Shown in pieces: positions 28,201-61,327 of a stretch of DNA of 64,000 bases; within the stretch, counting starts at the first letter, position 1; each line of letters opens with the position of its first letter. The notes under the pieces are model-generated. The model was not told the origin of the DNA. It did no database searches and saw only the letters and a program-made list of their open reading frames with translations. Both the position numbers and the translations under genes were made by a program. Location: the IMG/VR virus record IMGVR_UViG_3300025723_000013; one strand, written 5' to 3'. Origin of the DNA: a virus (taxonomy: Duplodnaviria; Caudoviricetes).

Positions 28201-31200
28201 ATTCCATAATTTAGTGGTGGGTGATATTGTTTCCATTAGAGGATTGGACAATGGAACCGATGGTGTTTATAAAGTTCTAGGAATTCCGTCACCAACTTCA
28301 TTTACAATCAGTTCTACACTGGTGCAGGTGCAGACTCCTACTGTGAGCGCACTGCTATATAAATTTATCAGTGTGAGAATCAATAGCTTTGATGATGTAT
28401 CTTTATTACAACAGTATGTAGATTTTAAAGATGGAGATAAAGTATGGGCTGACAGAGGAGATGCCTCAACTCCGTGGGCAGGATGGGAGGTATATCAAAA
28501 AACGTATAATTATTCTACCGCTAGCGATATCTCAGTTGGCGGAGTTGCGATTGGACAGCAATTTGCATATCAGATGGCAACTAGATATAATAACAATACA
28601 CTGGTGATATCTGCGCCCAGCTATTACGGAACAGCGGGTGCTAATGGAAACATTTATGTTCTTGATATTTCTAATATAAATCAGCCAATCACGGTAGCAA
28701 ATTTTTCTCTGTATCCCACATCAACAAATCCTAATTTGGAAACAGCATTAGGATTGGGTGCATCTTTGGCCTATGATGCAGAGCATGATATTGTACTGGC
28801 AGGAGCTCCTAATCAAAGTATTGTGCAATTTACAGGCATCAACAGATCTATAAACGCTAATACATCTACCGTTCAACTGTTTGATCTAACCAGTAAATCT
28901 GGATTTGGTAGATTTGGCAGCACTATTTTCCTGGCAGAAAATGGTGACCAATTTGGAAATAAAATTTTATTGGTTGCATCACCGGATGAACAAGGTGGAC
29001 CAATCTATGTATATGGGTTTAATGCAGCAAACAATACAGCTACTTTTGCATATACATTTACTCCTTTGAATGTGTTTCCTTATCATACAAGAGATTATGT
29101 AATCGCAGGCAATAGTAATGGAAGTACCATTGCAGTCGCCACTCTTGATCATACTTCTGGAAATAACGGTGTTGGAATTTACAACAGTGTAACTGGATTT
29201 CAGTATGCCACGCAGATATTAGATTCAGTATCTGGAGGATTTGGATCTGCGATGGCCATGTCATCCGATGGTATGTATTTGGTTGTATCAGCTCCATATA
29301 ACAATAATGGAATGGTGTTAGTTTACAAACTTCAAAATCATCAATATACAAAAGTTCAGGAAATATTAAATCCATCCATGGATAAAAATTTGTATTTTGG
29401 TACTGCAATTACCATTGACAATAGCGCAAATAAATTAATTATTTCATCAAGCGGAAAACAAAAATTCCAATTAACATTTGACAAAAATGGAACCACTTTT
29501 GATAATACCTCATTAACATTTTATGATTATATTGAAAATTCCGGCGTAGTTTCCATATACGAACGTAAAAATATCAATTTTGTTTTTTCCACAGAACTAA
29601 AAATTAATATAGATGCTGTCAATTCTTTAGGTGCCGGAAATAATTTTGGAAAATCGCTTGCAATTAACTCAAATAATATATTTGTAGGCGCTCCGGGGAT
29701 TAATGCATATAGCAGCGTTGGCAATGTGTATGCATTTACGGAATTGAATCCGCCTTCGTTGGGTTGGAAAACTTTAAGGCAGCAAGACTCATTAGTTGAT
29801 GTATCCAAGATAAATCGTGCAATTACCATTGATACTACAATTGATCAAGTGCAAAATTATTTAGATGTGATTGATCCTATCAAAGGCAGAATAGCAGGTA
29901 TTGCAGAACAAGAATTAACATATAAAACCCTGTATGATCCTGCAGTTTACAGCGTTGGAACACAACAGGTAGTTGTTGATACCAATACCAGTTGGATTGA
30001 AGATCACGTGGGCGAGCTTTGGTGGGATTTATCTACAGTAAAATACATTTGGTATGAACAAAGCGATTTAGAATATAGAAAAAATTCTTGGGGAAAAATC
30101 TTTCCAGGAGCAAGCGTAGATGTATATGAATGGGTCACTAGCAGTTATCTTCCTAGTCAGTGGAGTGCTCTTGCAGATACTCCTGATGGACTAGCCAAAG
30201 GAATAAGTGGACAACCCAAATATCCAGATAACAGTGTTGTGAGTGTCAAACAATACTATAATGGAGCCACTGGCGCGACTTCAAACATTTATTATTATTG
30301 GGTAAAAAATACAGTTGTTCTTCCTGCGCAGATTAATAGACGATTGTCTGCCAATGATGTTGCAAGTGCAATTTTTAATCCTGCAGGATATGGATTAGAA
30401 TTTGTTTCTATACTTTCTCCTAACGCACTTGCTGTTACAAATTTAATTTCAAATTTAATAGGAGACACTGTCAATCTAAATATTTCTCAAAATCTTATTA
30501 ATAATGATATCAAGAGACATACGGAATGGATACTGCTGGGCGAAGGAGTGGCTGCTGATCAGCCTACTACTCTTTTAAATAAAAAACTGATTGACAGTTT
30601 GGTTGGTCAGGATAGCCTGGGTAATCAAATACCTGATCCATTGCTCAGTGATAGACAAAAATACGGAATTGAAATACGTCCACGACAGAGTTTATTTGTT
30701 GATAGAAAAGCAGCCCTCAGAAACGCTATTGAATATGTCAATACCGTTACATCTCAGTACTTAATTACAGATATGATTGATTTTACACTGCTTAATTCCA
30801 AGCAAGAAATACCTGCGGTCTATCTAAATGAATACGATCAATTGGTAGACGTTTACGATGATTTGTTAGAAATAAAAACCAGTCTATTTTCGCCAGCAAT
30901 TCTGACCTGTAGCATCAGTACAGGTACTGGCACTGTTGGAACTATTTCTTCAGTGAATATAATTAATCCTGGATCATATTATGGAACATTGGTTCCTATA
31001 TATAGTTCAACAGGATCAATCTTAGCATATCAAGGTCCTACTGTACAAATTTATTCATCGGCAAATTCATTAGATATAAGCGGAGCTGTAATTACCACAC
31101 AGGTAAATGCTGCAGGTAGCATTATAACCGCAACAATTGTGAATCCTGGAAATAATTTTACAGTCAGTCCTATTCTCGCAGTGAGACCTTTCACAATTAT

Positions 31201-34200
31201 TGTTCAAAATGATGTTAATAGTGATAATCTCTGGGCCAAATATCAGTTGATAAACGGTACATTGAATAAAACTTTTACGCAAAGTTTTGATACTACAAAA
31301 TATTGGAATTACGTTAATTGGGTCAGTGCCGATTATGATCCAGTTAAACCATTAGCGGCAACCGTGGCCGAAACTTATCTACTTGCTTCTTTATCACTAA
31401 CACTTGGTGATTACGTTAAAGTTAATAATCAAGGAAATGGAAATTATATAATTTTGCAATATGTTGCTAGAAATGGAACGTTCAGTGATAATTTCAATCT
31501 GGTTTGCAGCGAAAATGGCACCATTAGATTCAGCGATGACTTATGGAACAGCGTAAACAATGAATATAATTTTGATTATCATTTTACTTACGATCAAACT
31601 TTATATGATCAAACGCCTGTTACAGAATTAATCAATATATTAAATGCTATAAAAAATAATATTTTTATAGGTGAATTATTAGTCTATTGGAATTATTTTT
31701 TCTTCAAGGCAGTCAAGTACGCCATGAGCGAACAATTATTTTTGGACTGGGCTTTTAAAACATCATTTATAAATGTTACAAATCTTGCCGGTTCCTTGGA
31801 TCAACGTCCGGTTTATAAATTTCAAAACAGTCAATATTATCAAGAATATATCCAAGAGGTAAAGCCATATCATACCAAGATAAGGAATTATCAAGTGGAA
31901 TATAGCGTGATAGATCCTAGTCAGACATACACTACTGATTTTGATCTGCCGTCTTTTTATAATACACTAACTCAGAAATTCACAGTTGCCAATCCAGGTG
32001 ATAGCATATTGAATTCCTATCCTTGGAAGGGATGGGCAAGTAATTACACTTTAAGCGTTGATAGTATTATTGTTGAAAATCCAGGAAGTGGATATACTTC
32101 TGTACCAACTGTTCAAATTATTCCTGCAATGGGTGATACCGGCGCTGGAGCAACTGCAGAAGCATCTATTTCTTTAGGAAAAGTGGTAGGTATAACTGTA
32201 ACCAATGGCGGAAGCGGGTATACCTCTACGCCTACAGTTTTAGTCGTAGGAGGCGGCTCAACTAATTTAACTTTGGCTTCTGCATATCCTGTAATGATTA
32301 ATAAAAAAGTAAGGAATGTTACCACAGAAATTAAATTTGATCGTGTTTCAGGAATTTCTGAAATCAGCACTTCTTCAGTGACTGATGTATTTTACTGTGA
32401 TGGAAACACATTGAAATTTCCTTTATCCTGGGCTGCTGAAAACAAAAAATCTAATATATCAATTAATGTTAATGGGCTTAGAGTATTGGCCACTGAATAT
32501 AATATAGTTACTTACAAACAATTAACTAACGGATATCAAAAGCTGTATTCAACCTTGATTTTAAATGTTGCTCCTCCTAACGCACATATATTAACAATAA
32601 CTTATAATAAAAATGTTGATTTGTATTACGCTGCTGACAGAATATCAGCATTTTATAGTCCTACTCCTGGAATGCCGGCAAATAATATTGCACTACTAAT
32701 GTCAGGAGTTGAATTTCCAGGAACGCAAATACAAGGTCTACCATTTTCTTATACAACAAACTGGGATGAAGCGCCGTTTGGTCAAACATTATATGGTGAT
32801 GATTCCGATTATTATATCACTAGCGGAGTTGCTGTAACTGCTTCTTCAGGAACATATCAATTGCAGGTAAACAGTATTGCTGGAATAACGCCGGGACTAT
32901 ATGTCAACACAGTTGCATTGACCACTTCAACGTTAAATGACAATAAATTTGGAATCAATAATGTCACTGTGATATCTGTCAATACAGCCGCATCAATAGT
33001 GACTTTTAGCACCTCCACTATTGAAACAATTATTGCCGGAACCGTAATGTTAGAATTCTGGGATTTTAACAAAACTTCAGGAATACTTGACACCGTTTTA
33101 GATGGCGGAGATCTAGGTTATACAACTGCTACCGGTACTGGGACTGCTGATATAATAGTTGACGCAGATAAATTTATCTCTGCTAATGTAAGCAACAGTC
33201 CTGAAGAACTAATCAATGGCAGTGTAAGTGACACATTGGGAATCAGTATTTTTACTAGAGATAATCCTGGAGTACCGTTAGTTACACAAACCTTCGATCA
33301 AATTAATCAGATAACGTCTACTTCTATTTTTAATTTGATAACACTTCCTCCCAATACTTCTTCGGTACTTGTTTCGTTTAATAATCGAGTATTAAACTAC
33401 GGCAATGATTACACTATTAATTTTAATAATCAAACATTAATTATTAATACACAAACCACCACCGGGTTGGTAGGTATTACTGCAATAAGTGCAGGAGGAA
33501 ATGGATATATTAATTTTAATTACATAGAGGCATCTAACACCAACACAATTAGTCTCAGTATTGGAATACCCAGCGAAATTGGCAGTTTATATGTTAGCCT
33601 AAACGGCGTGACATTAACTTCTTCGCAATATAGCTTAAATTCTCAAGGAGAGATAGTTGTAACAGGCCTGGATCCTGCGTCAGTTAATGTATTGCAGGCC
33701 TATGCGTTCTTGGGATCCTCATACAGTGTGGTGCATCAACAAACACATATTTTTAACGGTAGAGATACTGCGTTTGCAGTTTTGGCCTATCCAGGAAATA
33801 CATGGTCTCCAAATTCTCAGGCTATCGTGGAATATAATAACAGTATAATTCTAACTCCTCCTAATACTGTATACTATTCAATTAACAGTAATCAAACAAT
33901 ATTTTTAATTGACCCAAATAACAATTATCCTTCAGGCGCTTTTAGCTTAGGATCGCTCGAGGTATATGTAAATGGAGTTCAACTTAGAAACGGAATAGAT
34001 TTTATATTGAATCAAAGCGCCGATAGTATTCAGTTTAATAATGGATTTTTGCATACCGGTGATGTAATGGCCATCACTAACTATTCGTTTAGTGATTATT
34101 ATTTCAAATATGGAGGAATTGACATTACCAATCCTGCATATCACGGATATGGTAGTCAAATTAAAGTTGTTACATTTACAGATGCCACAGGATCATTGAT

Positions 34201-35335
34201 TAGAACAGAGGTATTTAAGAGCCATTCTTCTAGGCAATATAAAATAAGCAGAATCGCACTTAATCAAAATTATCTTTGGGTAACTATCGGCGGCTATCCT
34301 TTGATAAATGGGGTAGATTTTTATGTGGGTACTGATAATCAAACGATTATTATTAGAGATACATATCCGTTTGATGGTTCTCAAATGGTTTCTATAATGA
34401 GTATGGCCAATGTCACAGACACAGTGTCTTTAGGATATAGAGTTTTTACTGATCTACTGAATAAAACGCAATACAAGAGATTGAGTCAAAATAACACAAC
34501 GCAATTGGCACAAGATTTACAAATTACAGCAACTAATATTGTTGTACAGAATATATCTGGTTTAACTCCGCCAAATCCTGCACTAAGAACCAGTGGACTG
34601 ATATTAATTGAGGGAGAATTAATACAGTTTAATGGAATTTCTGGCAATACATTAACTGGAATCACTAGAGGAAGTTTTGGAACAGGATCTAAATCTATAT
34701 ACTATGCTGGAACTACTGTTTTAGATCAAGGATATAGGCAAAATCTTCCATATTCAGAATCCATTGTTCGCCAAGTGCTAACAGCTACAAATACCACATC
34801 TTACAGTATAAATGGGATATTGTTAACTACCGCTACTTCTATTAATCAGGTATCCATTTATTATGGAGGACAGTTGTTAAACAAGCAAGGGTATTATCAA
34901 CAAGATGCATCAGTTTGTTATGACGCTATTACTTCAAACATTATCGGTACAGTATCTACTTCAACCCTTCTTCCAGCTACCACTGTGCTAGGAACAGCTT
35001 ATCTAGTTTCGGGATCAAATCAAGTTTGGACCTATACTGCATCTAAACTTGCATCAGCTACGACCACAAATGGATATGTTTATAGCGGACTTATGTACGT
35101 TAATCCGCAATTTACAATCACAAATGTTATATCAAATGGAACAATCAGTACCGCGACTTTGATATTGAATCTTCCATCAATAACTCCAGGAATTTCAATA
35201 TCTGTTGTACAACGAACGGCAATTAATAATTTTTATGCCTCAACTACTACCTCATTACTAAATGATACCGGAATCGTAGCTAAAATTTTACAACTAAGTC
35301 CGGCCTTGTTGCCTGATAAATATTACTATGAATAA
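22232..35335 (+). CDS. Giant (4367 aa) baseplate/tail structural protein (gp7-like position), with propeller-type repeats
   Basis: Uninterrupted ORF after gp6; FG-GAP-like repeats ([36 protein letters not shown]) and (N/G)PGSGYTSxPTV repeats. Confidence 0.7.
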
Positions 35336-49688: not shown

Positions 49689-49940
49689 CTATCGATGAAA
49701 TCGACCTTTGCTATGATCAACCATTTTGTGCACTTCAGGACCCTGACTCACAAAGTCCATGCCGGCAGATCTACCTTCATAAATCCTGCCATTCCACGTC
49801 ATGGGTAATTTAATAGTGTTATTGATAATAACCGTCATCTTATCTTGATGTTTAAAAAAGATAACTTCTGCATCAACAGCTTTTCCGTTCTTTTCCTGAG
49901 TAACTTTACAATTTTTGTCGTGCCGATAAGAATCCATCAT
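49689..49940 (-). CDS. Hypothetical protein
   Basis: ATG overlaps the queE stop. Confidence 0.55.
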   Translation of the reverse strand: MMDSYRHDKNCKVTQEKNGKAVDAEVIFFKHQDKMTVIINNTIKLPMTWNGRIYEGRSAGMDFVSQGPEVHKMVDHSKGRFHR

Positions 49941-50809
49941 GTTCCCCAAGCATTTCCAAATAGATCGCATTGCAGTCTTGGACTATAACGCCAGCCTTGA
50001 CTCATGGCATATTCTGCCACTTGACGATTATTCATTTCATATGTTTCCACAGTTCCGCCTACTGGCATCAAGTAGACTGGGCACAAAACATCAGCTTGGC
50101 GATAAGCTTCCACAGCACGATTAACATCGACCAAATCATCAGTATTGGCAACAACAAACTTAAGATACAGATTGCTACCACCATTAATAGATAAATCATA
50201 GTAAGATTTAACAACGTAAGGCTGAATCGCTTCCTCCCAATTCTCACCGCTAACCGTGAGTTTCGGGCTGCAGGACCAGGTGATGTGTAAATTGTTTCTT
50301 TGTTGTAGATAATCGGAAAAATCCTTGTGAAGCTTTTGAGTTGCATTTGTTTCAAATGTGAGATTTTTTAGATCTCGCATGCCTTCGTGTTCTAATAGGT
50401 CAATATAACTGCGTTGCCAGCCCAATAAAGGTTCGCCTCCGGTTATAACCAAGTGTATATCTTGACCGTTTGGTTGTGTCCACTGATTATTTGGTATCAA
50501 TTGTAATAAGCGTTCTACAATGGCGTCCGTATCATTTTTAATTGCAAATTTTTTAAATTCTGAATATACACTTGAATATGAATCACATCCGGTTTTAACT
50601 AGCGGAAGATCATCAAATGTTTTATATTGATCAATATTTTCAATTATTTTCTCAACTTCAGGATTTTTATCTTGGATAACTTTTGAAGAACGACCAAATG
50701 ATTTACATTTAAAATTGCAACCAAAGGTTCTAAAAAAAACACTAGGAATACCGGTCCATACTCCTTCACCTTGCAATGAATAAAATGTCTCTGTATAATG
50801 TATTTTCAT
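49937..50809 (-). CDS. queE: 7-carboxy-7-deazaguanine synthase QueE (radical SAM)
   Basis: ETFYSLQGEG..TGIPSVFFRTFGCN, TGCDS, LVITGGEPLL, FETN, SCSPKL, LMP, YSPRLQ; same cluster as folE and queD. Confidence 0.85.
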   Translation of the reverse strand: MKIHYTETFYSLQGEGVWTGIPSVFFRTFGCNFKCKSFGRSSKVIQDKNPEVEKIIENIDQYKTFDDLPLVKTGCDSYSSVYSEFKKFAIKNDTDAIVERLLQLIPNNQWTQPNGQDIHLVITGGEPLLGWQRSYIDLLEHEGMRDLKNLTFETNATQKLHKDFSDYLQQRNNLHITWSCSPKLTVSGENWEEAIQPYVVKSYYDLSINGGSNLYLKFVVANTDDLVDVNRAVEAYRQADVLCPVYLMPVGGTVETYEMNNRQVAEYAMSQGWRYSPRLQCDLFGNAWGT

Positions 50810-50813
50810 TTTT

Positions 50814-51587
50814 TTACCTTTTAACTGTTTTAATTCCGTATTCTTCAAAAGTTAGTCCGACAAAATCTGTAAATTCTGGATGAATTAATACAAATATTTT
50901 ACTAATTATAGCATTTCTATTAATTACAATCAACGTATTTTTTGAAAATGTCGGATATAATTTTAACAAATCTATACTTCCTTCGCAGTATCCTTTTGGA
51001 GTTTCATATGCGTATTTTGATGCTGCTAAACTCCTAATTCTTGATCCTTTTTTAACATTTCTTTTTTTCCGAGCAGCAAGTGTTTTTTTTAATTTTGTTT
51101 CGATAGAATCTTTTCTTCCCTTTGCAATTGCTGCATAAAGCACACCGTTATATTTTTCAAATAGTTTTTTAGGTATTCTTGCAACTTCTTCTGTGATTAA
51201 ATGTTTTGCTACTACTGTATTTTTACTATATTGGCTAACTATTTTTGAGTGTTTTTCTCTGATATAGGAGTACACTCTATTAGTAATTTTATAATTTCTT
51301 CCAGAATGAATAGAATAAATCATTTTATGCAATGCCTTTATCATTTTAGGATTATTGGTAGCTTTTGCTAATAAAAGATGTGCGATAAAATGATGTCTAG
51401 CACTTAATTTAATTAAATTAGTTCCTTCTGTTCCTCCAATAGATCGAGGAACAATATGATGCATTTCGGTATATCCGGAAAAATTAATAGTTTTACAGAT
51501 TTCTATGAATTTAATATATCGTTCAATTAAAAGTATTTTAGGATTATGAGAATATTTTAACAAATATATTTTAAGGTCGTTAGACAT
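50814..51587 (-). CDS. Free-standing HNH homing endonuclease-like protein
   Basis: YTEMHHIVPRSIGG...NLIKLSARHHFIAHLLL; GGAG SD; very AT-rich insert within the metabolic cluster. Confidence 0.8.
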   Translation of the reverse strand: MSNDLKIYLLKYSHNPKILLIERYIKFIEICKTINFSGYTEMHHIVPRSIGGTEGTNLIKLSARHHFIAHLLLAKATNNPKMIKALHKMIYSIHSGRNYKITNRVYSYIREKHSKIVSQYSKNTVVAKHLITEEVARIPKKLFEKYNGVLYAAIAKGRKDSIETKLKKTLAARKKRNVKKGSRIRSLAASKYAYETPKGYCEGSIDLLKLYPTFSKNTLIVINRNAIISKIFVLIHPEFTDFVGLTFEEYGIKTVKR

Positions 51588-51604
51588 TAGATTTTACTCC
51601 AGTA

Positions 51605-51671
51605 AAGTAGTAGAAGGCTATCTGTGTTACTGGTACAGAAGGATGATCAGTCCTTTCGCCTTCTACCACTT
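51605..51671 (-). promoter_or_regulatory. Three-way-junction RNA structure and adjacent late promoter upstream of the HNH gene
   Basis: 14-bp outer stem (one G-U on the - strand) enclosing AGGA/UCCU and UCUGU/ACAGA hairpins; ATAAATA at 51671-51677. Confidence 0.55.
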
Positions 51672-52088
51672 ATTTATTTTAACATTATCTAAATTTGGAT
51701 CATGATAATTTCCTTTTCCTGGGATAACGTGCCTTACTCCACCTCTAGGATTGTCTACATCGCCAAATTTCCTTGGAATAAGATGCACATGCGGCCACAT
51801 CACAGTTTGTCCTGCAGCCTCGCCATAATTAATTCCTATATTGAATCCATCCCATACTTGATTTGTTACTTGATCTTTTCCATAACGAACAGCATCTTCA
51901 AATGCGTCATTTAGAATGTAGATACTATTATATCTTGGAACAAAAAGCAAATGTCCTTCACTTACCGGAAATTTATCTCGATATATGATCACATGAAAAT
52001 CTTCACGGAAAACATCTTTCCAAGGAACGTTTGCATCCTCAATCACTGCTGGTCCATCAAAAATCCTATCTACATCGATATTTGTCAT
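51663..52088 (-). CDS. HIT family nucleotide hydrolase
   Basis: FPVSEGHLLFVP, GFNIGINYGEAAGQTVMWPHVHLIPR. Confidence 0.85.
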   Translation of the reverse strand: MTNIDVDRIFDGPAVIEDANVPWKDVFREDFHVIIYRDKFPVSEGHLLFVPRYNSIYILNDAFEDAVRYGKDQVTNQVWDGFNIGINYGEAAGQTVMWPHVHLIPRKFGDVDNPRGGVRHVIPGKGNYHDPNLDNVKINKW

Positions 52089-52089
52089 G

Positions 52090-52620
52090 CTATTTCCACC
52101 ATACTTCGTAAGGAAATTCAATCCAAACATTGTCGTTGGATTTGTTGATCTCCATTCCCACAAAATCCATACTTACTTTACATTTGCTATCAAGATTATC
52201 TACTATCACTGCAAATTTAACATTGTTATTCCAAATATTATCCCATCGCTCAACAGAGCATATTCCCGTCTGCCAGTCGTTTATAATCCAATTAAACGTA
52301 GCACCACTATCGTTAATGTCATCCACGATCAGCATGTTTTTTGGAGCATCCATGTCGTAGCCATATGCGTCCTCGGCCATGGCACCATGACTGACACAGA
52401 TTCCTCCGTCGCGCAAACTGACTTCTAGAGGCTGCATAGGGATATCAAAATAATGACTGATCATGGTAGCGGCCATTAGTCCTCCGCGGCTGATTCCTAC
52501 CACGTAGTCAGGACGCCAACTGCTGTTTACAATTTGCCGGCATAGATCCGATACCAAATTTTCATATTGATCGTAAGTTAATCTTAATTTTTTAGTATTA
52601 GCCGACGACATTTTAGCCAT
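52090..52620 (-). CDS. Type I phosphoribosyltransferase (purine PRT-like)
   Basis: VVGISRGGL and PRPP-binding LIVDDINDSGAT. Confidence 0.85.
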   Translation of the reverse strand: MAKMSSANTKKLRLTYDQYENLVSDLCRQIVNSSWRPDYVVGISRGGLMAATMISHYFDIPMQPLEVSLRDGGICVSHGAMAEDAYGYDMDAPKNMLIVDDINDSGATFNWIINDWQTGICSVERWDNIWNNNVKFAVIVDNLDSKCKVSMDFVGMEINKSNDNVWIEFPYEVWWK

Positions 52621-53305
52621 GTCCTTTCATGGAAAGACAAATATCATAAAATTCTTTTTTCAATGCAGGATCACTGTTAAACGCACCCAACATGATAGCA
52701 GTAGTCATGTCGCTTTCATGTTCTCGAACTCCTCGCTGTGTCATGCAGTGATGTTCTGCCTTTACTACCACTGCAATATGCTCTGTCTTGGCATACTCTC
52801 GCAACGCATCTGCGATTTGTGTAGTCATTTCTTCTTGTATCTGCGGACGTTCACAGATATGATGCACCAGTCTATTGAATTTACTGAGACCAATAACATC
52901 ATCTTGTGGAACAATGCCAACCCAACATTTTCCAACGATATTTTGAAAATGATGCGCACATGTTGAACGGATGCTGATAGGACCAGTGGTATATAAACTT
53001 TTGTAACCCATGTTGGGAAAAGCAGTGATTTTAGGAACTGCTCGATAACGTCCGCTAAAAGTTTCCTTGATAAACATTTTGGCCACACGACGCGCAGTGT
53101 CTTTGGTATTATGATCATTGTCAATGTCGATCACCAAAGATTTTAACACGCCCTGCATCTTTTCTGCCACTTCTTTTACTAATTGTTCAAGTTCTTCGTC
53201 GTCCTTGATAAACTCAGAAATGTTATCATTGCTGTGATAACGAGCGCCAGAGAGTTCAACTCGATTTCTAATAATATCGCTTATGTTTTGCATTTTTTCC
53301 TCCAT
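52613..53305 (-). CDS. folE: GTP cyclohydrolase I
   Basis: TARRVAKMF, STCAHHFQNIVG, GLSKFNR, QIQEEMT, AEHHCMTQRG. Confidence 0.95.
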   Translation of the reverse strand: MEEKMQNISDIIRNRVELSGARYHSNDNISEFIKDDEELEQLVKEVAEKMQGVLKSLVIDIDNDHNTKDTARRVAKMFIKETFSGRYRAVPKITAFPNMGYKSLYTTGPISIRSTCAHHFQNIVGKCWVGIVPQDDVIGLSKFNRLVHHICERPQIQEEMTTQIADALREYAKTEHIAVVVKAEHHCMTQRGVREHESDMTTAIMLGAFNSDPALKKEFYDICLSMKGHG

Positions 53306-53310
53306 TGCCT

Positions 53311-53352
53311 ATAATAGCAAAGATATTTAGGCAAAGTCAAATCTGCCTAAAT
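53311..53352 (-). promoter_or_regulatory. Sigma70-like promoter for folE overlapped by a 9-bp inverted repeat
   Basis: TTGACT-18 nt-TATTAT; ATTTAGGCA (53325-53333) / TGCCTAAAT (53344-53352). Confidence 0.45.
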
Positions 53353-53360
53353 AAATTGTG

Positions 53361-54548
53361 TTAAAATTTGTGTTCTCTATTATGTTTACGATAATCGGTA
53401 GACATGCGTAACCACTGTTCGCCGTTGCCTTCAATGATATCAACAATTCGATCAATGGTTTTATCAGTCCAATCGCTAATCTTGCCCATACCGGTGTGAG
53501 GATTTTGCAGCAGGATTTTTAATTTATCAATTGCGTCATCAATGGACCAGGGCGTGTACAAACGTGTATAATCATTGGAAAAAGTTTCTGGAAAACTGCG
53601 ATAAGCAGGATACAGCACATTGCATCCTAGGGTATCTGCTTCAGATACAGTATTAGATACCCAATCTTGCAACGCACAATTAAATAGAACACGAGTATCA
53701 TTGAGCAAATCATAGTAAGAATTCTTTTCTAAGTCCTCGTAAACAGTGAGCAAGTTTCGCTGTTGCAATTCGCGTGTGCGAGACATATAACTTTCATTAT
53801 TAGATCTAAGTTTAGAACCAGAAAAAACTGCAAACTCTACACTAGGCAAACTCATTGAATGCCATTTTTCAATCAAATCCATATAGAAGTCTGGCTGTTT
53901 TTCTTGATCCCAACGGGCAGCAAATCCAACTCGCATGGTTCGCTCATGGAAAGGTTTGATTTGATTGTTGACTCTTTCAAGCACCTCTGTTTTACCAAAA
54001 GCCAGTCCTGAAATGTTATAGATTGGAGCCGTCCATCCTGCAACCTTCATGTGCATGACCATTTCTTCGTTGGATGCAAGGACCGCTCCTTTGGAAATGC
54101 TAACAATTTCGTTAACCATGCGCTCGTAATCGCCCATCCATTTCTGCAATCCCCAGACATGAACAAAATCATCAGGATCAATTGATTGCGCAAGACAACG
54201 TACAAAAATACGAGGACGCATATTTTCAGGAATTTGGTTGATAATATATCCCAAACTTTCAAAGCCGGGTTGAAACATATCTTCAAAGTAAATAACATCG
54301 TCGCTGTTAACTTCACCCTGCTGCATCAGTCGTACAAGATTCATCATTTGACTCATACTAAAATAAGATCGACCGTGTGCATCAAGCACTTGCCCGACAA
54401 CGATTTTTTGACTGCTATCCAGGGTAAGACCCGGAACATATGACACAGTAAGTCCGCGTCGGTTAAAAACTCTGGTGTTCCATTCACTTAATTGTAAAGT
54501 ATAACGGGCTTGATAGGATTCAAGCCCCATATAATATAATTGTCTCAT
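53361..54548 (-). CDS. GT-B fold glycosyltransferase within the 7-deazaguanine cluster
   Basis: RVGFAARWDQEKQP, YDLLNDTRVLFNCALQDWVSNTVSEADTLGCNVLYP..RSFPE resemble the GT4-type donor-binding domain. Confidence 0.7.
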   Translation of the reverse strand: MRQLYYMGLESYQARYTLQLSEWNTRVFNRRGLTVSYVPGLTLDSSQKIVVGQVLDAHGRSYFSMSQMMNLVRLMQQGEVNSDDVIYFEDMFQPGFESLGYIINQIPENMRPRIFVRCLAQSIDPDDFVHVWGLQKWMGDYERMVNEIVSISKGAVLASNEEMVMHMKVAGWTAPIYNISGLAFGKTEVLERVNNQIKPFHERTMRVGFAARWDQEKQPDFYMDLIEKWHSMSLPSVEFAVFSGSKLRSNNESYMSRTRELQQRNLLTVYEDLEKNSYYDLLNDTRVLFNCALQDWVSNTVSEADTLGCNVLYPAYRSFPETFSNDYTRLYTPWSIDDAIDKLKILLQNPHTGMGKISDWTDKTIDRIVDIIEGNGEQWLRMSTDYRKHNREHKF

Positions 54549-54550
54549 TG

Positions 54551-54832
54551 TTAATTCTTCTTGATATAAGATTTACGATCTTGATTATTGGAAAACTTTG
54601 CATCTGAACGATCCTTATTGTGAGATCGATCTCGATAATCTCTATTTGATTTTCCAGACTGAGATTTTTGAAAGTAACGGTATTCCTTGGATCTATATAA
54701 ATCCGAAGGATTGAATGGAAGTAGATTAAATCTACAGTGATCATGCCATGCTTCGAGATCTTCGAAGATCCTGGTTACTTCCGGTTTCATACGCGAAGAT
54801 TTATAGTTATTGTTGTAATTGCTGTTTGACAT
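54551..54832 (-). CDS. Hypothetical small protein
   Basis: AAGGAG SD; basic C-terminus. Confidence 0.65.
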   Translation of the reverse strand: MSNSNYNNNYKSSRMKPEVTRIFEDLEAWHDHCRFNLLPFNPSDLYRSKEYRYFQKSQSGKSNRDYRDRSHNKDRSDAKFSNNQDRKSYIKKN

Positions 54833-54855
54833 TTTTACTTCCTTATTTTTAAGGT

Positions 54856-55227
54856 TTATAGATGTGTTGGAAATTGAATGAAGCAGCCATTCTCGCCATC
54901 TTCACTCACGGAAATCCAAACCTCACGGATTGGATATCGTGCGTTAATTGTGTGATAAAGATCACGTGCAATCATTTCGCAGGATTTATAGTTAAGCTCA
55001 AGTGTGCCATTGGAGTAGCAGCTCTCAAGCCAACGTTTAAACTGGATAAATTCTAAGTCTCGATCATCATGATACACCTCAATCCATACCTTGAAATGAA
55101 AGATATGACGATGTGGATAACTTAGAAAACTAACATCCTCTAATTCCGGGGAGGTAGCCGCGCCGGGATATCGATGTATACCTTCTTTTTGGAAGGTTAC
55201 CCAAATCATTGATTTTTCTTTATTCAT
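54856..55227 (-). CDS. queD: QueD-like 6-carboxytetrahydropterin synthase (T-fold)
   Basis: HRHIFH metal His cluster, SCE, and C-terminal VSEDGENG. Confidence 0.7.
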   Translation of the reverse strand: MNKEKSMIWVTFQKEGIHRYPGAATSPELEDVSFLSYPHRHIFHFKVWIEVYHDDRDLEFIQFKRWLESCYSNGTLELNYKSCEMIARDLYHTINARYPIREVWISVSEDGENGCFIQFPTHL

Positions 55228-55732
55228 TGACTGTTTCTCGCAAAGTGTCTGAAATATAAAAACTTAATTCTTCGTAGTTAAAAGCGGTATCAAAATTATT
55301 TAAAATTAAATTTTTAAGATACGGGTATGCAATTTTTTCTCCAGGAATATTGAGTGTACAACATTTGCTGTTCGGCGATGAATACTTTTCTGGCAATTTA
55401 ATTTTTTTAATTTTCAGTTTGTATTCTGAAATAATAGCATTTACTATGACAACTATATGACTTTCGGATATATTATATAATTCTGTGGCACTACTTCCTA
55501 ATAAAAATTTTGCCGATCTTGTGTATGCAAAATTTTTAAAAACTCTTTCAAGCATTGTTATATCAGTAAATTCGCCAAAGTAAAGATGACTCAAATAAAA
55601 ATATTTTGATGTATATTTTTGCCTGGCTCTTACCACCGAGTGAGGAGTTATTCCTACTCCTATTTTATTCCACGACGTGTCCCCTGCCATATCCGGATGG
55701 ATATAGAAAAAGGGACTTACATTCTTTTTCAT
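55220..55732 (-). CDS. Hypothetical protein, possibly a degenerate GIY-YIG/T5orf172-like nuclease
   Basis: FFYI...NKIGVG...R..Q...LER..K...TELY pattern; AT-rich. Confidence 0.4.
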   Translation of the reverse strand: MKKNVSPFFYIHPDMAGDTSWNKIGVGITPHSVVRARQKYTSKYFYLSHLYFGEFTDITMLERVFKNFAYTRSAKFLLGSSATELYNISESHIVVIVNAIISEYKLKIKKIKLPEKYSSPNSKCCTLNIPGEKIAYPYLKNLILNNFDTAFNYEELSFYISDTLRETVNE

Positions 55733-56253
55733 TTAATTACCTCATCGTTTTTATATTGAAACCAATTGGTGAATGTATCTCTGCTCATCAAACTCTGCAG
55801 ACTGTGTGTCCAAACGCCGGGATTTGTAGAATCAAAATCTTTATCATCAATTTTGATCATGGTATTATAATTCCACAGCTTGAGATAAGGTATTGGAATA
55901 CGAATTTGTGGAATAAAATTATTATAGTTGTTTAACCCGCCGTCGTTGAATTCTTCTACAGCCGACAGTGGGATATCTAAAGTGCACCAAAAATCTTTTT
56001 CAAGAAAGGCAGAAATCATTTTCTCCCATGCACGCCATTCGTCGGCATTGTTATAGGCAGGATTAAAACTGTGATTGGCACCAAAGAAAATATGCTTGCA
56101 GCCATTGAATAGTGTTTTTTCATATATGGATTCAAATGAATGTAACCCTACTACAAACAATGTTTTCATTCCGTAGGCAGGAGTTTTTTCAACTTCTATT
56201 CCTACAAAAAACATCACGTCATCGGATTCGCCGGATTCATAATATCTTTTCAT
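55729..56253 (-). CDS. Hypothetical protein associated with the deazaguanine cluster
   Basis: 174 aa; FFVGIEVEKTPAYGMKTLFVVG, HIFFGANHSF, KIDDKDF..TNPGVW. Confidence 0.7.
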   Translation of the reverse strand: MKRYYESGESDDVMFFVGIEVEKTPAYGMKTLFVVGLHSFESIYEKTLFNGCKHIFFGANHSFNPAYNNADEWRAWEKMISAFLEKDFWCTLDIPLSAVEEFNDGGLNNYNNFIPQIRIPIPYLKLWNYNTMIKIDDKDFDSTNPGVWTHSLQSLMSRDTFTNWFQYKNDEVIK

Positions 56254-56258
56254 TATTT

Positions 56259-56287
56259 AATATACTATCTTTAATATTAATTGTCAA
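56259..56287 (-). promoter_or_regulatory. Sigma70-type promoter positioned for a leaderless mRNA
   Basis: TTGACA-17 nt-TATATT, then 5 nt to ATG 56253; no SD. Confidence 0.55.
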
Positions 56288-57833
56288 CACTATTTTCCAA
56301 GGCTCTCAAGGCGTCATCCTCGGGATTATTTAAATCTATTTCTTCAACCTTGGTAACTTCGTCGATTTGAAATAAATTGCTAAAAGCATTATCACTTTTT
56401 CCGTCTGTAGTGTTTCTTGCACCTGCTAGATTAATTAAAAATGCCTTAGCAGTGGGATGTTCCAGCATTTCCATAGCCTCACTTAAATTTTTAGTTGCAA
56501 ATAATTCTTCTACAAAACGATCAAAATAAAGAATGTTTCTTGGAACCCATTCGCTATATTGATCACTGGAAAGATCTTTATCCTTTAATTTTTTCCAATG
56601 ACGCCAATCGGGACGGAATCTAGCGCGTTCAATATCCATCAATTGATTGGCACGTTGGACCGCAGCTATATGACAATAAACGTTGTGTCCCATCATTAGT
56701 GCATAGGAAAAACTATCCCATGACGTTTTTCCTTCTTTGCCAATTTTATTCAGCATCCCTGGGGCGTAATGACAAATATCTCCAATAGTTAATCTGCGTC
56801 CAAATTCGCTTTCAAAAGGAAAAGGAATATCAGATTTTGACAATGCTTTGTTATCAGGAGCTTTATCCATTACTACTCCAAATTTCTTGGCAGTATGGCG
56901 TGCGTTTGTATAAACCAGTCCGTGTGCGGTAGCTACAAAGGGACTGGCACAGTCAAAACTAATTGTGAGATTTTCATTGACAGTCTGTCTAATCTGTCTT
57001 TGTATAGAAGTTAAAAAACAAGCCCAGTCTAGCTGTGCTGTACCTAGGCAGTGTATCCAATTTTTATCTTGTAAAAATCCTTCTTCTCTCATGATCATCA
57101 AGCGTTTGAGAGTAATGTCCATTTTGCTCATATTAACACCGCCAAATGCCCACCCTTCGGCAGCACGATCTCCCCAAACTTTTGGATCACTGAATTCTTT
57201 TACTCCTTCGTACCAAGTTTGTGCACTGATCCAGTCACTGCCTTGTAGTACATTGAGCCATTTTGTTTTACCCGATGAATTTTTTAAAAAATATTCATTG
57301 TTGTATCTTGTTTTTTCCAAGCAATCCTGTGGACTTGTTAGCCCGGTTCTGGCAGTATTGTTTTTATCACATGCCCAAATAGGTACATCCAACATCATGG
57401 ACCAATCGGCGGTAAGCTCTAACCATGCGATAATATCATCTCTTACTTTATTGGCAGCAGGACCCTGGAAATTTAACCAATCAAATTTTAGAATTCCTTT
57501 TCCAATTTGATATCCGCCAGAGTCTCCTAGGATCATGGTGTTATTACGATCTCGTTTCTGTATCATGGATTCCTGGACTAGGCTTTTTTTGAGATCCAAT
57601 TGAGCATGCCCTGCAGAATATAATGCATACTTGTAGGTAAAATAGCCTTCTTCTGGATTGAGAAAATTCATGCCTTCAATTCCTCGATCAAAATCCTTAG
57701 GAATACGATCTAGAGGCACAAATTCCTCCAAACGCTGCTTGGCAATATATGTGCTATAAAAACTACTAATTGCTGGAAGATATACAGAATAGTCTTTTTG
57801 TAGTGGTGTTAAATCTACTGGTGGTCTTTTCAT
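56277..57833 (-). CDS. tRNA-guanine transglycosylase (TGT)/DpdA-like guanine exchange enzyme
   Basis: ILGDSGGYQ, MLDVP, NVLQG, GWAFGG, WIHCLG and FDCASP follow the order of TGT-barrel motifs; same cluster as folE, queD and queE. Confidence 0.75.
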   Translation of the reverse strand: MKRPPVDLTPLQKDYSVYLPAISSFYSTYIAKQRLEEFVPLDRIPKDFDRGIEGMNFLNPEEGYFTYKYALYSAGHAQLDLKKSLVQESMIQKRDRNNTMILGDSGGYQIGKGILKFDWLNFQGPAANKVRDDIIAWLELTADWSMMLDVPIWACDKNNTARTGLTSPQDCLEKTRYNNEYFLKNSSGKTKWLNVLQGSDWISAQTWYEGVKEFSDPKVWGDRAAEGWAFGGVNMSKMDITLKRLMIMREEGFLQDKNWIHCLGTAQLDWACFLTSIQRQIRQTVNENLTISFDCASPFVATAHGLVYTNARHTAKKFGVVMDKAPDNKALSKSDIPFPFESEFGRRLTIGDICHYAPGMLNKIGKEGKTSWDSFSYALMMGHNVYCHIAAVQRANQLMDIERARFRPDWRHWKKLKDKDLSSDQYSEWVPRNILYFDRFVEELFATKNLSEAMEMLEHPTAKAFLINLAGARNTTDGKSDNAFSNLFQIDEVTKVEEIDLNNPEDDALRALENSVDN

Positions 57834-57835
57834 TT

Positions 57836-58570
57836 TTACGCCTGTGCTGGAATAATATATTTGTAAGTTGCTAAACCGCTATCCATTGTGATCTGCAAAG
57901 CCCCGGCATCGCTGATGCTTAATTTACAGTTATTGACATCGGCAATTTTTAACACGCTTAGGATGGCAGCAATTGGCCATGTGTGAGAACGTGACAGCTT
58001 TCCTGTAACGTTGTTTGCAAATACAAACTCACCGCCGTGTGTGCTATGATCGCCAAAAATAAATTTTAAGTTATTTCCTTCAATTTTAGGAAGAAATGTT
58101 GTATGCTCGCTATTAGCACCGGCCTGAAAGCTAAACCGCTGCACGGATTGCAAGGTAGGAGTTACTTCAACATCCCAATTAGCTCCGCGGAATTTTACTG
58201 TTTTTAATTTTTCATTAATAATTTCGGTATTCATAAATCGATAGTCATTTTTAAAATCGCCATTTTTATTTTCAAAATGAATGCCAACAGGCACTTTTAC
58301 TCCATTACGATTGTCTGTAATAATATCAAGTTTGGCATCTTCTTTATATTCATCGCCGTCAAGCAGATATTTAAGTTTGTTAAGTTGAGGCATACCAAAC
58401 ACACCAATCATTTCCGGATATGGATTGTTGGTTTCTCCATACATGATAAGAGATCTGTCGTCGCTCATGGCATCGATCTTGGTAGATGTTTTATCTCCAG
58501 TAATTTTTACAATGTTTAAAAAACCTAAACTATGAGTATGACTCACGATATCTTGTAGAATTTCTTTCAT
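57836..58570 (-). CDS. gp45: DNA polymerase sliding clamp (gp45-like)
   Basis: 244 aa, directly downstream of PolB; size and C-terminal G.LQITMDSGLATYKYIIPA are consistent with a clamp. Confidence 0.6.
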   Translation of the reverse strand: MKEILQDIVSHTHSLGFLNIVKITGDKTSTKIDAMSDDRSLIMYGETNNPYPEMIGVFGMPQLNKLKYLLDGDEYKEDAKLDIITDNRNGVKVPVGIHFENKNGDFKNDYRFMNTEIINEKLKTVKFRGANWDVEVTPTLQSVQRFSFQAGANSEHTTFLPKIEGNNLKFIFGDHSTHGGEFVFANNVTGKLSRSHTWPIAAILSVLKIADVNNCKLSISDAGALQITMDSGLATYKYIIPAQA

Positions 58571-58624: not shown

Positions 58625-61327
58625 TTATTCAAAGCTAAACAAACTGCTAAACGTATTTTCTTGAGTGGTAGATTCTAGATCCCAATCCAGTACACCGATC
58701 AAATTGTCTAGTTTATTATTAATGATAGCCGATTCCATGGCAGAATGATCAAATGGCAGTTCTTGAAACCACTTGGGTAATCTCAATTCGTCAACCGGAT
58801 ACGCAACGCTGGTAAAGCCAATGGGATTATCTTTAAGTTTGCAAACAATCACCTTCATTCCGTCCACGATTTGCATTGAATACTTGTCGCCATTCATGCG
58901 TCTTAGCGTATTCCAATTGATAGATGCTCTAACATGTCCGGGCATGTTTGCTTTACCTGCTTTTTCTTCCTTGATTTGATATTCAGCAATGTTGTTGGCA
59001 CGTTTAGGACTACCTTTTTCCCAACCCGGGCGTGCCTTGAACTCTGTGCGAAATTCTGAAATCATGTCTAAGATTTCTTTTTCTCCAGAACCGTTCAATA
59101 CTTTATTTAGAATTTCACTAAGGAAGTTTTGCATAAATTCTGGAGTGTCACTTCTTTTAAGATCCAACCCCATGGCTTTGATCTTGCCAGGTTTTCCATC
59201 AATGTCTTGACGTTTTCCGTCTTTGTCATAATAAAGCACAGCATATCTTTTCTTGGTAATGAATAGCCCTTTAATAGCAACGATTTCTCTGCCTGCCCGT
59301 ATAACATCTCCTCGCTTTTTGGGTGTATGAAAGGCATCCAACATCATTTGCGGAAATGTTGAATTAACTTCTTCAGCCACTGTATTATACAGTTGTATCA
59401 CCGTGTCCTTATCCCAAGGCAACAGTCCTTTTTGTATTTCATTTTTTAAGGTAGTGTAGGCAGTAAAATAGGCACTGTCAGTGTCGCCGTAAATAATAGC
59501 CTTGCCAACATGATCATATTCACCGGTGATTATTTCGTTGATCTTGGCCGCCATGTGTTTTGCGATTCTACGACCCGTGAGCGTGGTAGATTGTCCGATC
59601 CTGTTATCAAAAAATCTGCATCCAGCATTGAGAATAGCTCCGTATAGGCTGTTGAGATTGATCTTTTTCACTAGCTGACGTTTATCCCAATATTCCTCTT
59701 GGATTTTATTTCCAGCATCAATGGCTTCTTTGAGCTTTTTCTGCATTTCTTTACGTTCTTTATACCAACGCGCAAGCAAGCCTGGAATAATTCCTTCTTT
59801 TTCAAACGTAAAAATAGTGCCGTTAGCACTTAGTACCCAGGGGTTATTGCTTTCAAAAATCAATTCGTAAATTTGTGCGCCACTCAGCATGTCATGCCGC
59901 CCATCTTCCCAGTCGATGATGATTTCTTTTACTCGATCCTTGGACATGACCAGTTCATATTCATTGCTGCCGAATTTTCCTTCCCAAGCCAGAGCAAATT
60001 TACCACCATTTTTTGCCATCTTGGTTTCAATTTCTAACTTGGTATACTGTTGTCGCAATTGGCCTATAATGGTTTCTGGGCCCATGTTTAATGCGCGAAT
60101 TACGGAAGGATATAGACTGTTGATGTCCATGGATCCAATCCAATCATGTAATCCTTTTTTAGGATAGGCTACATATGCGCCCGCAGCTTTATCATCTGTT
60201 GAACTATTTTCTTCGTCATCATCGATAGATTCTTTGTCTTTTTTTGCTCGACTTGGGACGATTAATCCCAAGTGATGTGCTTCGTTGATAATTGCCTGTT
60301 CGGTCACTGCCACGGCGCCCATGGTAGTTTTGAGTAGCACAGTGTTTTCGTGAGCAATGCTGTTGGCCAAATCAATAAATTTTAATTTTTTATCTAGTTT
60401 ATCTAGCAGTGCGCAGTCTTGCCTATTATATTCAATAAATTTGCGAAAATCATTATTATAAAGTTGATCAAGTGTACCTTCATAGACCGTTTTAGTTTCA
60501 CCTAATTCATAGTCTGCAATGGCATCGAGACGATAACTGTGACGTTCTTCGTATGTGTACTTTCTATAAAGCTCTAGGCTGTCCAGATGTACCCGGCCTA
60601 CCAAATCATATGTCATGGCTGCCTTGCCGTATTTTTCATATTCTCGCTTTTTAGGCATTTGATCCCATAGACAAAATCTACGTGTATCTTCTTTACTAAG
60701 TACCTTGATTACTCGATTAACGGTATAAGGTATATCAAACCCTTCGCTGTTCCATCCGCTGAGTACATCAGCATCGTCGATGAGATTTAAAAACGTGTCC
60801 AACATTTCATATTCTGTTTCAAACAGCATGGTGTTAGGAAATTCTTTTACCTGCTCTTCGGCCTCTGCCATGGTTAATGTTTTAGGCGGTACAGCAAGAC
60901 ATACCAGAGTATCCAACCATTGTAAATGCACAGCGATCGCGGTGATTGGCATAAATGCATCGCTTGGACTAGCATATCCACGTTCTGGATCAAAATCTAC
61001 CTCAATATCAAAGAACGCTACGTTAAGTTTTGGAGCATCTTTTCCTAGATAGTTTTCTTCAAGACATCGAAAAATGGGATTCATATCGCTTTCAAAAAGT
61101 TTGCGATTTCCATGTATGCGTTGTTCCTTGGTATGCTCTTTCCAACTCTTAGATACAACCTTGACCAATGACTGACCAAAGATACTTGTGTATTTGCCTT
61201 TGGGATCTGGATAATAGAAAAGATATCTTGCTGGATATGTTTGATATATTCGACCTTTGATAGGATCACGTTCAACGACATTGACAATATCGCTGTCACG
61301 ATCCCATAAGGAATCTACGTAACTCAT
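58625..61327 (-). CDS. gp43: Family B DNA polymerase (gp43-like)
   Basis: ExoI FDIE, ExoII GWNSEGFD, ExoIII YNRQD; polymerase motifs DINSLYPS, KINLNSLYG and YGDTDS. Confidence 0.97.
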   Translation of the reverse strand: MSYVDSLWDRDSDIVNVVERDPIKGRIYQTYPARYLFYYPDPKGKYTSIFGQSLVKVVSKSWKEHTKEQRIHGNRKLFESDMNPIFRCLEENYLGKDAPKLNVAFFDIEVDFDPERGYASPSDAFMPITAIAVHLQWLDTLVCLAVPPKTLTMAEAEEQVKEFPNTMLFETEYEMLDTFLNLIDDADVLSGWNSEGFDIPYTVNRVIKVLSKEDTRRFCLWDQMPKKREYEKYGKAAMTYDLVGRVHLDSLELYRKYTYEERHSYRLDAIADYELGETKTVYEGTLDQLYNNDFRKFIEYNRQDCALLDKLDKKLKFIDLANSIAHENTVLLKTTMGAVAVTEQAIINEAHHLGLIVPSRAKKDKESIDDDEENSSTDDKAAGAYVAYPKKGLHDWIGSMDINSLYPSVIRALNMGPETIIGQLRQQYTKLEIETKMAKNGGKFALAWEGKFGSNEYELVMSKDRVKEIIIDWEDGRHDMLSGAQIYELIFESNNPWVLSANGTIFTFEKEGIIPGLLARWYKERKEMQKKLKEAIDAGNKIQEEYWDKRQLVKKINLNSLYGAILNAGCRFFDNRIGQSTTLTGRRIAKHMAAKINEIITGEYDHVGKAIIYGDTDSAYFTAYTTLKNEIQKGLLPWDKDTVIQLYNTVAEEVNSTFPQMMLDAFHTPKKRGDVIRAGREIVAIKGLFITKKRYAVLYYDKDGKRQDIDGKPGKIKAMGLDLKRSDTPEFMQNFLSEILNKVLNGSGEKEILDMISEFRTEFKARPGWEKGSPKRANNIAEYQIKEEKAGKANMPGHVRASINWNTLRRMNGDKYSMQIVDGMKVIVCKLKDNPIGFTSVAYPVDELRLPKWFQELPFDHSAMESAIINNKLDNLIGVLDWDLESTTQENTFSSLFSFE

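Follow-up and report, generated by a model that had tools for sequence, protein, structure and literature searches.

A GT4-type glycosyltransferase dedicated to phage 7-deazaguanine clusters may add a sugar to a deazaguanine in DNA

Introduction

What does a glycosyltransferase (GT) do in the middle of a phage gene cluster that appears to make a 7-deazaguanine? We address this question for a locus in a 64-kb stretch of DNA (64,000 nucleotides, hereafter the window) from the Caudoviricetes record IMGVR_UViG_3300025723_000013. The window belongs to an 88-kb IMG/VR contig with a CheckV completeness of ~25%, and since related IMG/VR genomes reach up to 352 kb, the source is a jumbo phage, as yet uncultured, with a genome of about 300-350 kb. 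A sequence-only reading of the window had recognized, in one co-oriented block downstream of a family B DNA polymerase (PolB) and a sliding clamp, genes for a TGT/DpdA-like enzyme, a queD-like protein, a GT-B glycosyltransferase, FolE, a phosphoribosyltransferase (PRTase), a HIT protein and QueE. It had proposed that the GT sugar-modifies a deazaguanine in DNA, such as 7-carboxy-7-deazaguanine (CDG) or a derivative of it. To our knowledge, every glycosylated DNA base described so far is a pyrimidine.

The glycosyltransferase occurs only in deazaguanine clusters

All named genes of the cluster were confirmed at the coordinates given in the sequence-only reading. They follow PolB and the clamp, closely spaced and all on the minus strand. 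In minus-strand order they encode proteins of 518, 174, 170, 123, 93 and 395 amino acids (aa), followed by FolE, PRTase, HIT, an HNH endonuclease and QueE. Pfam, PHROG, fold and motif evidence upheld the earlier assignments of the TGT/DpdA-like, GT-B, folE, PRTase, HIT and queE genes. The earlier inventory was sound in that all of its genes exist, while the 170-aa open reading frame (ORF) and the HNH endonuclease had been overlooked.

The GT is the 395-aa protein encoded at 53361..54548 on the minus strand. Our comparison set consisted of 80 related IMG/VR loci, 38 of which span the full cluster. The gene order is repeated in 80/80 of these loci, an arrangement far beyond chance, and the GT is placed between DpdL (the 123-aa protein, see below) and FolE in every one (80/80). 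The DpdA-like enzyme, DpdL, the GT and QueE are present in 38/38 relatives that span the cluster and are never lost. A second GT-like gene is added in many relatives and in phage BUCT-ZZ01.

The same association was found well beyond these relatives. Of 50,697 phage records screened, 28 contain DpdL, and all records bearing a member of the GT family fall within those 28: eleven PA5oct-like phages, BUCT-ZZ01, BUDD, X1, ACP17 (two records), BCSR5 and Phosso. There DpdL and/or a DpdA of the DSG type lie next to the GT or no more than a few kb away, with reading frames that sometimes overlap. The ten other DpdL records, those of the Cellulophaga phages, RHph_I1_18, Bakedbeans, Ahp1, D479 and MA9V-3, have no GT within 9 kb, and their DpdA, where recognizable, is DpdA3. 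We also examined seven distant GT representatives (30-39% identity), six of which lie on unrelated metagenome contigs with readable neighbors; in 6/6 the GT adjoins DpdL, PTPS, radical-SAM, FolE or phrog_887 DpdA genes.

Wherever the context is readable, the GT family is found only with DpdL/QueE/DpdA clusters and never in DpdA3-type phages. The co-occurrence of GT and dpdA across phages, proposed earlier as a check, was thereby borne out. A narrower rule, by which the GT would occur only with the long DSGGxQ form of DpdA, was ruled out: three metagenome loci (L105, L108 and L109) pair the GT with a short DSGAHS DpdA (phrog_887). The revised rule is that the GT accompanies DpdL together with a DpdA of the DSG type, never DpdA3. 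Because the association is exclusive across the 80 relatives, the six metagenome contigs and cultured phages of six lineages, comparative genomics strongly supports the GT as a functional part of the deazaguanine pathway.

Two features of the metagenome loci are recorded here as such. In unrelated clusters (L109, 4334-5008, and L106) a ParB_N protein follows the GT and is reminiscent of bacterial DpdB. One GC-rich unrelated GT locus, which also encodes a resolvase and a RES domain, has the look of a bacterial mobile element rather than of a phage.

The glycosyltransferase has a GT4 fold and conserved donor-binding motifs

The AlphaFold model of the GT (pLDDT 95, pTM 0.93) shows two Rossmann-like domains and a cleft between them. 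Its nearest structures in Foldseek, at E about 1e-11, are the retaining GT4 transferases BshA, MshA, PimA, SenB and LmbT; GT4 BA1558 is also among the fold matches, which range in E from 1e-11 to 1e-9, and matches to Swiss-Prot models agree with GT4. The enzyme is thus assigned as a GT4-type, retaining-type GT-B glycosyltransferase. The protein itself gave no PHROG, NCBIfam or PDB sequence match. It also did not match PF00534 (Glycos_transf_1) at E 0.01, while 57 of 98 aligned family members do. An exhaustive profile search places the family at 771 clusters at 50% identity.

In the family alignment R212 and K217 are invariant, and D295 and E303, each at least 90% conserved, lie in the stretch QDWVSxTLLEA (DX7E). 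We take R212 and K217 to be phosphate binders and, together with the DX7E motif, to represent the donor-binding signature of GT4 enzymes. The confident GT-B model, the PF00534 matches within the family and the conserved donor-binding and catalytic motifs argue that the enzyme is a working sugar transferase and not a relic. Among viral models the nearest neighbors of the GT are an ACP17 protein and a 370-aa viral protein, probably that of BCSR5 (TM 0.72-0.87); a cyanophage 'DNA alpha-GT' comes no higher than rank 44 among the viral-library fold matches. The Swiss-Prot fold search did not support a special kinship to the tRNA-modifying enzyme QTMAN. In the GT homolog P0377 an intein is inserted within a conserved motif, between FNC and ALQD.

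The queD-like gene encodes DpdL and points to 7-deazaguanine

The gene previously called queD-like (54856..55227, minus strand; phrog_17812, E 2e-34) is DpdL, a QueD paralog and proposed CDG decarboxylase. Its 123-aa product carries the stretch FLSYPHRHIFHF (motif L-SYP-HRHIF), that is LxxxHRHxF in place of the CxxxHGH of QueD; LxxxHRHxF is the DpdL signature (PMC10516641) and is conserved across 11 aligned DpdL sequences. The protein is 56% identical to the DpdL of ACP17 (E 6e-45) and 35% identical to that of Cellulophaga phage phiST (E 3e-15). Since this gene is DpdL, the likely base is 7-deazaguanine and not CDG, which revises the earlier proposal as to the base while leaving the GT in the pathway.

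Two further enzymes of the route are encoded in the cluster, both on the minus strand. GTP cyclohydrolase I (FolE; 52613..53305) matches PF01227 (E 2e-46), phrog_2197 (E 4e-52) and the NCBIfam FolE model. The QueE-like radical-SAM CDG synthase (49937..50848) matches phrog_2076 (E 1e-46), has five NCBIfam QueE models as its best matches, all under their cut-off, and shares 42% identity with the annotated QueE of BUCT-ZZ01. Its cysteine spacing is unusual, as the stretch GCNFKCKSF lacks the usual third cysteine and the next one follows in TGCDS ~39 residues on.

QueC was reported missing from the window, and this holds more widely: the 88-kb contig has no Pfam match to QueC, PTPS or TGT (PTPS sought to E 1), and a 100%-complete relative of 352 kb has no QueC above cut-off. 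Its absence is explained by the DpdL route, which aims at 7-deazaguanine. In a 76%-complete relative a 233-aa QueC-family PP-loop ORF (39 bits) lies at 239.5-240.1 kb, far from the cluster. Taken together, the presence of FolE, QueE, DpdL and a TGT-fold enzyme, with QueC not found, places the cluster in the DpdL/7-deazaguanine branch (PMC10516641), and its gene content identifies it as a putative replication-linked 7-deazaguanine DNA-modification operon.

QueD itself sits between FolE/PRTase/HIT and QueE in 36/38 cluster-spanning relatives; the two remaining relatives are without both FolE and QueD in the cluster. The FolE and QueD steps can evidently be supplied by host enzymes or by distant copies. 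In the window the QueD slot of the relatives is occupied by an HNH homing endonuclease (50814..51587, minus strand; phrog_655, E 2e-34), an inserted selfish gene. This QueD-less, HNH-bearing arrangement occurs in four independent samples, one of them a 284-kb contig.

The DpdA-like enzyme may be tethered to the replication fork

The first gene of the cluster (56277..57833, minus strand) encodes a 518-aa DpdA-like base-exchange enzyme of the TGT fold. By sequence it matched no Pfam (TGT/DpdA included, E 0.01), PHROG, NCBIfam or PDB entry, and because a profile of the long DpdA family reached TGT among PDB sequences at E 0.95 only, its membership in the TGT/DpdA group rests on fold and motifs. 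The AlphaFold model has a moderate pLDDT of 65.5. Its top Foldseek match is the DpdA structure 7UI4, followed by TGTs, at E about 1e-4, and VIA-align superimposes ~275 residues on DpdA/TGT with Z 13-14, which is the whole TGT domain. The Atlas feature search likewise led to TGT and DpdA.

The protein contains DSGGYQ (104-109), LDVP (148-151), QG (197-198), HxLG (261-264) and FDC (293-295). In an alignment of 15 sequences with homologs from PA5oct-like phages, Phosso, ACP17, BUDD, BCSR5 and BUCT-ZZ01, the elements DSGGxQ, M..D.P, G198, H..LG and D294 of FDC are invariant. These presumably correspond to the catalytic and base-binding (aspartate) positions of the Zymomonas mobilis TGT. Compared with the bacterial enzymes (DpdA, 7UI4; Z. 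mobilis TGT), the phage protein shares the TIM-barrel TGT fold and the DSGGxQ, LDxP, QG, LG and FDC motifs but has ~150 additional residues and a C-terminal tail, and the window holds no DpdB-like partner. It is 41% identical to the PA5oct-group protein that adjoins the GT of that group. To DpdA3 of phiST (CGPG_00065, 259 aa) it shows no BLAST similarity at E 1; relatives of DpdA3 occur only in GT-less DpdL phages.

The C-terminal tail carries a motif of the form [NQ]xFxx[LFM]F. Over the 181 six-frame ORFs of the 88-kb contig this motif occurs twice, once at the C-terminal end of PolB (QENTFSSLFSFE) and once in the DpdA-like tail (SDNAFSNLFQ), and a motif of the NAFSNLF type is kept in the PA5oct homolog. 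The PolB-like tail motif may be a clamp-binding peptide. As it is restricted to PolB and the DpdA-like protein, it would fit a DNA substrate at the replication fork rather than tRNA.

Accessory and neighboring genes

The other genes of the cluster, all on the minus strand, are less constant than the four core genes. A 174-aa protein (55729..56253) with no recognized fold is a recurrent accessory found in 31/80 relatives; searches against Pfam, PHROG, NCBIfam, PDB profiles and Atlas gave no match. It has homologs in ACP17, where the gene adjoins FolE/DpdA, in PA5oct and in the unrelated metagenome locus L105. We compared its occurrence with that of the second GT, a homolog of a 447-aa protein of BUCT-ZZ01. 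Among the 38 loci 13 have only the 174-aa gene, 24 only the second GT, one has both and none has neither, counts that come from kindred loci (L011-L090) and are a lead rather than a statistic. This near-exclusivity hints that the two may be alternative second-step enzymes. Between DpdL and the GT lies a gene (54551..54832) for a basic protein of 93 aa (pI 9.8) and low complexity; it holds this position in 54/80 relatives, and the protein gave no match in Pfam, PHROG, NCBIfam or PDB sequence searches.

The PRTase (52090..52620) is of the purine type (Pfam Pribosyltran, E 4e-11), with a xanthine PRTase model as the best NCBIfam match, under cut-off. It is present in 15/80 relatives, in 12/38 of those spanning the cluster, and also in PA5oct and BUCT-ZZ01. 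A plausible role is the salvage of released guanine, which would feed GTP back to FolE. A PRTase-FolE fusion that seemed to exist in L105 was dropped, as its basis was a PRPP-loop-like motif alone with a Pfam E of 0.33. The HIT-family nucleotide hydrolase/transferase (51663..52163; Pfam HIT, E 2e-9) starts at ~52088 according to gene callers (141 aa) and occurs in 10/80 relatives, 4/38 of the cluster-spanning ones. PRTase and HIT are accessory, optional genes. The 170-aa basic ORF between the 174-aa gene and DpdL (55220..55732) matched no family in Pfam, PHROG, NCBIfam or PDB searches, is absent from 80/80 relatives and recurs in the same phage from other samples; it is probably an inserted selfish or mobile gene outside the pathway.

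The replication genes that flank the cluster are PolB (58625..61327; Pfam DNA_pol_B, E 2e-37, and DNA_pol_B_exo1, E 1e-17) and the sliding clamp (57836..58570; phrog_12062, E 2e-37), which shares 36-38% identity with the PCNA/sliding clamps annotated in PAC2 and Phosso. Both are on the minus strand. Beyond QueE follows a 5'-3' exonuclease of the RNase H type.

Elsewhere in the window, ~50 kb from the cluster, a second and unrelated ORF with a weak Glycos_transf_1 match (3571-4527) adjoins a class I methyltransferase (4537-5307). An SMC_N/Rad50-like ORF (5781-7772) has a weak intein-splicing-domain match at its N-terminus. A single ORF of 4367 aa (22232-35335, plus strand) lies amid large structural-looking genes.

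Comparison with known systems

In phiST, whose DpdL-type system was described by Cui, Hutinet et al. (NAR 2023, PMC10516641), all G in the DNA is replaced by 7-deazaguanine. The present cluster resembles that system in having FolE, QueE and DpdL, in lacking QueC, in adjoining replication genes and in its expected purpose, the replacement of G to escape restriction. It differs in that phiST has the short DpdA3 (259 aa) and no GT, whereas here a long DSGGxQ transglycosylase is found and a GT4 enzyme, the 174-aa protein, PRTase and HIT are added, with QueD missing.

Close cultured counterparts are PA5oct and vB_Pa-PAC2 (Wroclawvirus), which have PolB, clamp, long DpdA-like enzyme (41% identity), GT4, DpdL (54%), PRTase, QueE and RNase H in the same order. 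GT identity to PA5oct is only about 23%. The clusters of PA5oct-like phages also hold an epimerase-domain gene, and in PA5oct FolE lies outside the cluster and the homolog of the 174-aa protein elsewhere in the genome. PA5oct DNA resists restriction enzymes with G in their site, through a modification whose chemistry is unidentified (PMC12191111), and we found no published chemical nature of this modified G in the literature searched. The restriction data fit a modified G.

The T4 alpha- and beta-GT and the GTs that build 5hmC glycans act on the hydroxyl of a hydroxymethyl-pyrimidine and resemble T4 beta-GT (bioRxiv 10.1101/2023.12.21.572611). The likeness to T-even phages drawn in the sequence-only reading stands in so far as a phage GT-B enzyme is part of a DNA base-modification set with an expected anti-restriction mark in the major groove. 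It ends at the type of enzyme and substrate, as here a GT4 enzyme is linked to a purine (deazaguanine) pathway. Hydroxymethyl-pyrimidine genes were not seen in the roughly one quarter of the genome available, and the thymidylate synthase (ThyA) homolog in the window looks canonical (345 bits).

Proposed pathway and alternative explanations

An active GT whose sole known genomic home is the DpdL/QueE/DpdA set would be expected to act on a molecule of that pathway. We propose that FolE and QueE, together with a QueD supplied from outside by the host or by the unsampled part of the genome, convert GTP to CDG. DpdL would take off the carboxyl group to give 7-deazaguanine, which the 518-aa DpdA-like enzyme, probably tethered at the fork by its polymerase-like clamp-binding peptide, would exchange for guanine in DNA. 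The GT4 enzyme would use a nucleotide sugar to glycosylate the deazaguanine, either while it is still a free base or once it is in DNA, and virion DNA would then bear a glycosylated 7-deazaguanine in the major groove. The freed guanine would probably be salvaged by the PRTase. A possible route is a C-glycoside formed at C7 of the free base and inserted by the clamp-tethered DpdA, and TGT-type pockets accept bulky 7-substituents. What the data show directly is which genes are present, the folds of their products, the conserved motifs and the exclusive association in genomes; we infer all chemical steps, the sugar, the acceptor atom (C7 or C8 in a C-glycoside, or N in an N-glycoside) and the timing on base or DNA.

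Our favored reading of the gene content, to which we give an even chance, is that the GT of this operon puts a sugar on a deazaguanine. That a sugar-modified deazaguanine would be present in virion DNA we hold to be somewhat less probable. With similar caution we suggest that guanine may be replaced by a sugar-bearing 7-deazaguanine in at least seven phage lineages, PA5oct included, with the GT4 enzyme acting on a C or N unmasked by DpdL. DpdL and DpdA of ACP17 alone failed in E. coli, and the authors suspect "other unknown enzymes" (PMC10516641). This failure fits a missing GT.

Several observations weigh against a sugar on the base. 7-Deazaguanine is without a hydroxyl, and a C- or N-nucleophile is not established for GT4 enzymes: an N-glycoside, or a C-glycoside on the electron-rich pyrrole carbon that decarboxylation would expose, would be new chemistry for them. 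The GT-less DpdL phages phiST (PMC10516641) and VP1 (bioRxiv 10.1101/2025.10.29.685425) carry plain 7-deazaguanine, so the pathway is complete without a GT. The decarboxylation of CDG to 7-deazaguanine by DpdL is itself a proposal, whose activity failed in E. coli (PMC10516641). Canonical QueD (PF01242, CxxxHGH) was not found in the 88-kb contig, and tblastn with the QueD of relatives gave no match; a copy elsewhere in the genome, of which the contig is ~25%, or supply by the host is possible. On the side of the GT, the family is acidic (median pI 5.8) and thus gives no sign of a DNA-binding surface, its closest structures act on small molecules or lipids, and T4 beta-GT is not in the first 50 PDB fold matches.

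Some of these points would be accommodated if the DNA contained plain 2'-deoxy-7-deazaguanosine and the GT travelled along with another target, for instance a protein of phage or host, the cell envelope or tRNA bases of the queuosine type. The full replacement in phiST and VP1 speaks for this explanation, as do the acidity of the GT and its resemblance to small-molecule and lipid GT4 enzymes. QTMAN (GTDC1) is a GT4-family mannosyltransferase that acts on the cyclopentenediol hydroxyl of tRNA queuosine. Its acceptor is thus a 7-deazaguanine derivative in nucleic acid, it shares the GT4 fold, and a QTMAN cluster ranks 56th in the Atlas feature search. The cluster described here, however, offers no queuosine side chain, and no aligned member of the GT family matched QTMAN_N among the listed Pfam families. 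We consider another target unlikely, if the strongest of the alternatives, as it leaves unexplained why the GT keeps to the DpdL/QueE/DpdA neighborhood in phages whose hosts range from cyanobacteria to Pseudomonas as well as on unrelated metagenome contigs, and why it is frequently translationally coupled to DpdL or DpdA. That same strict linkage, down to overlapping reading frames, would be met by a GT that works in biosynthesis and leaves no sugar in the DNA, either by forming a transient glycosylated or activated intermediate or as a partner subunit of DpdA like QTRT2 or DpdB; BshA, MshA, SenB and LmbT, among the nearest structures, indeed glycosylate small metabolites. The conserved donor-binding and catalytic motifs speak against a purely structural GT, though, phiST produces 7-deazaguanine DNA without one, and no sugar-removing phosphorylase or hydrolase is evident in the cluster, which makes such a role improbable in our view.

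The purine PRTase and the HIT protein in the cluster, of which the PRTase recurs in the PA5oct and BUCT-ZZ01 clusters, raise the question of replacement at the nucleotide level. The PRTase would then make a deazaguanine nucleotide for incorporation by PolB, HIT would edit the pool, and the TGT-like enzyme and the GT would serve tRNA or repair. A precedent is found in toyocamycin-type pathways, in which a PRTase acts on preQ0. We give this scheme only a slight chance: PRTase and HIT are present in 12/38 and 4/38 of the cluster-spanning relatives compared with 38/38 for DpdA-like, DpdL, GT and QueE, and the TGT-like enzyme retains all catalytic motifs as well as the PolB-like C-terminal motif. 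In the published view, moreover, DpdA inserts all known phage deazaguanines after replication (PMC10516641).

Implications

The 7-deazaguanine/DpdL system itself was already known; new here is a GT family dedicated to deazaguanine clusters. The literature search found neither a glycosylated or hexose-bearing deazaguanine in phage DNA nor a GT tied to deazaguanine, and the main text of the DpdL paper makes no mention of glycosyl (PMC10516641). If the favored reading is true, in which this GT glycosylates a deazaguanine that enters DNA, the product would be the first glycosylated purine in DNA and a new class of hypermodification, and the GT would perform new chemistry on a hydroxyl-less substrate. 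It would account for the G modification of PA5oct-like phages, which are therapy candidates, and for the inactivity of ACP17 DpdL and DpdA alone in E. coli. The prediction of a sugar-bearing deazaguanine is directly testable with cultured phages. The gene set is abundant in metagenomes, with thousands of 90%-identity clusters for both the GT and the DpdA-like protein, and a modification so widespread would therefore bear on the escape of these phages from restriction and CRISPR, on modification-sensing defenses such as END nucleases and Dag glycosylases, and on a sequencing bias against such genomes.

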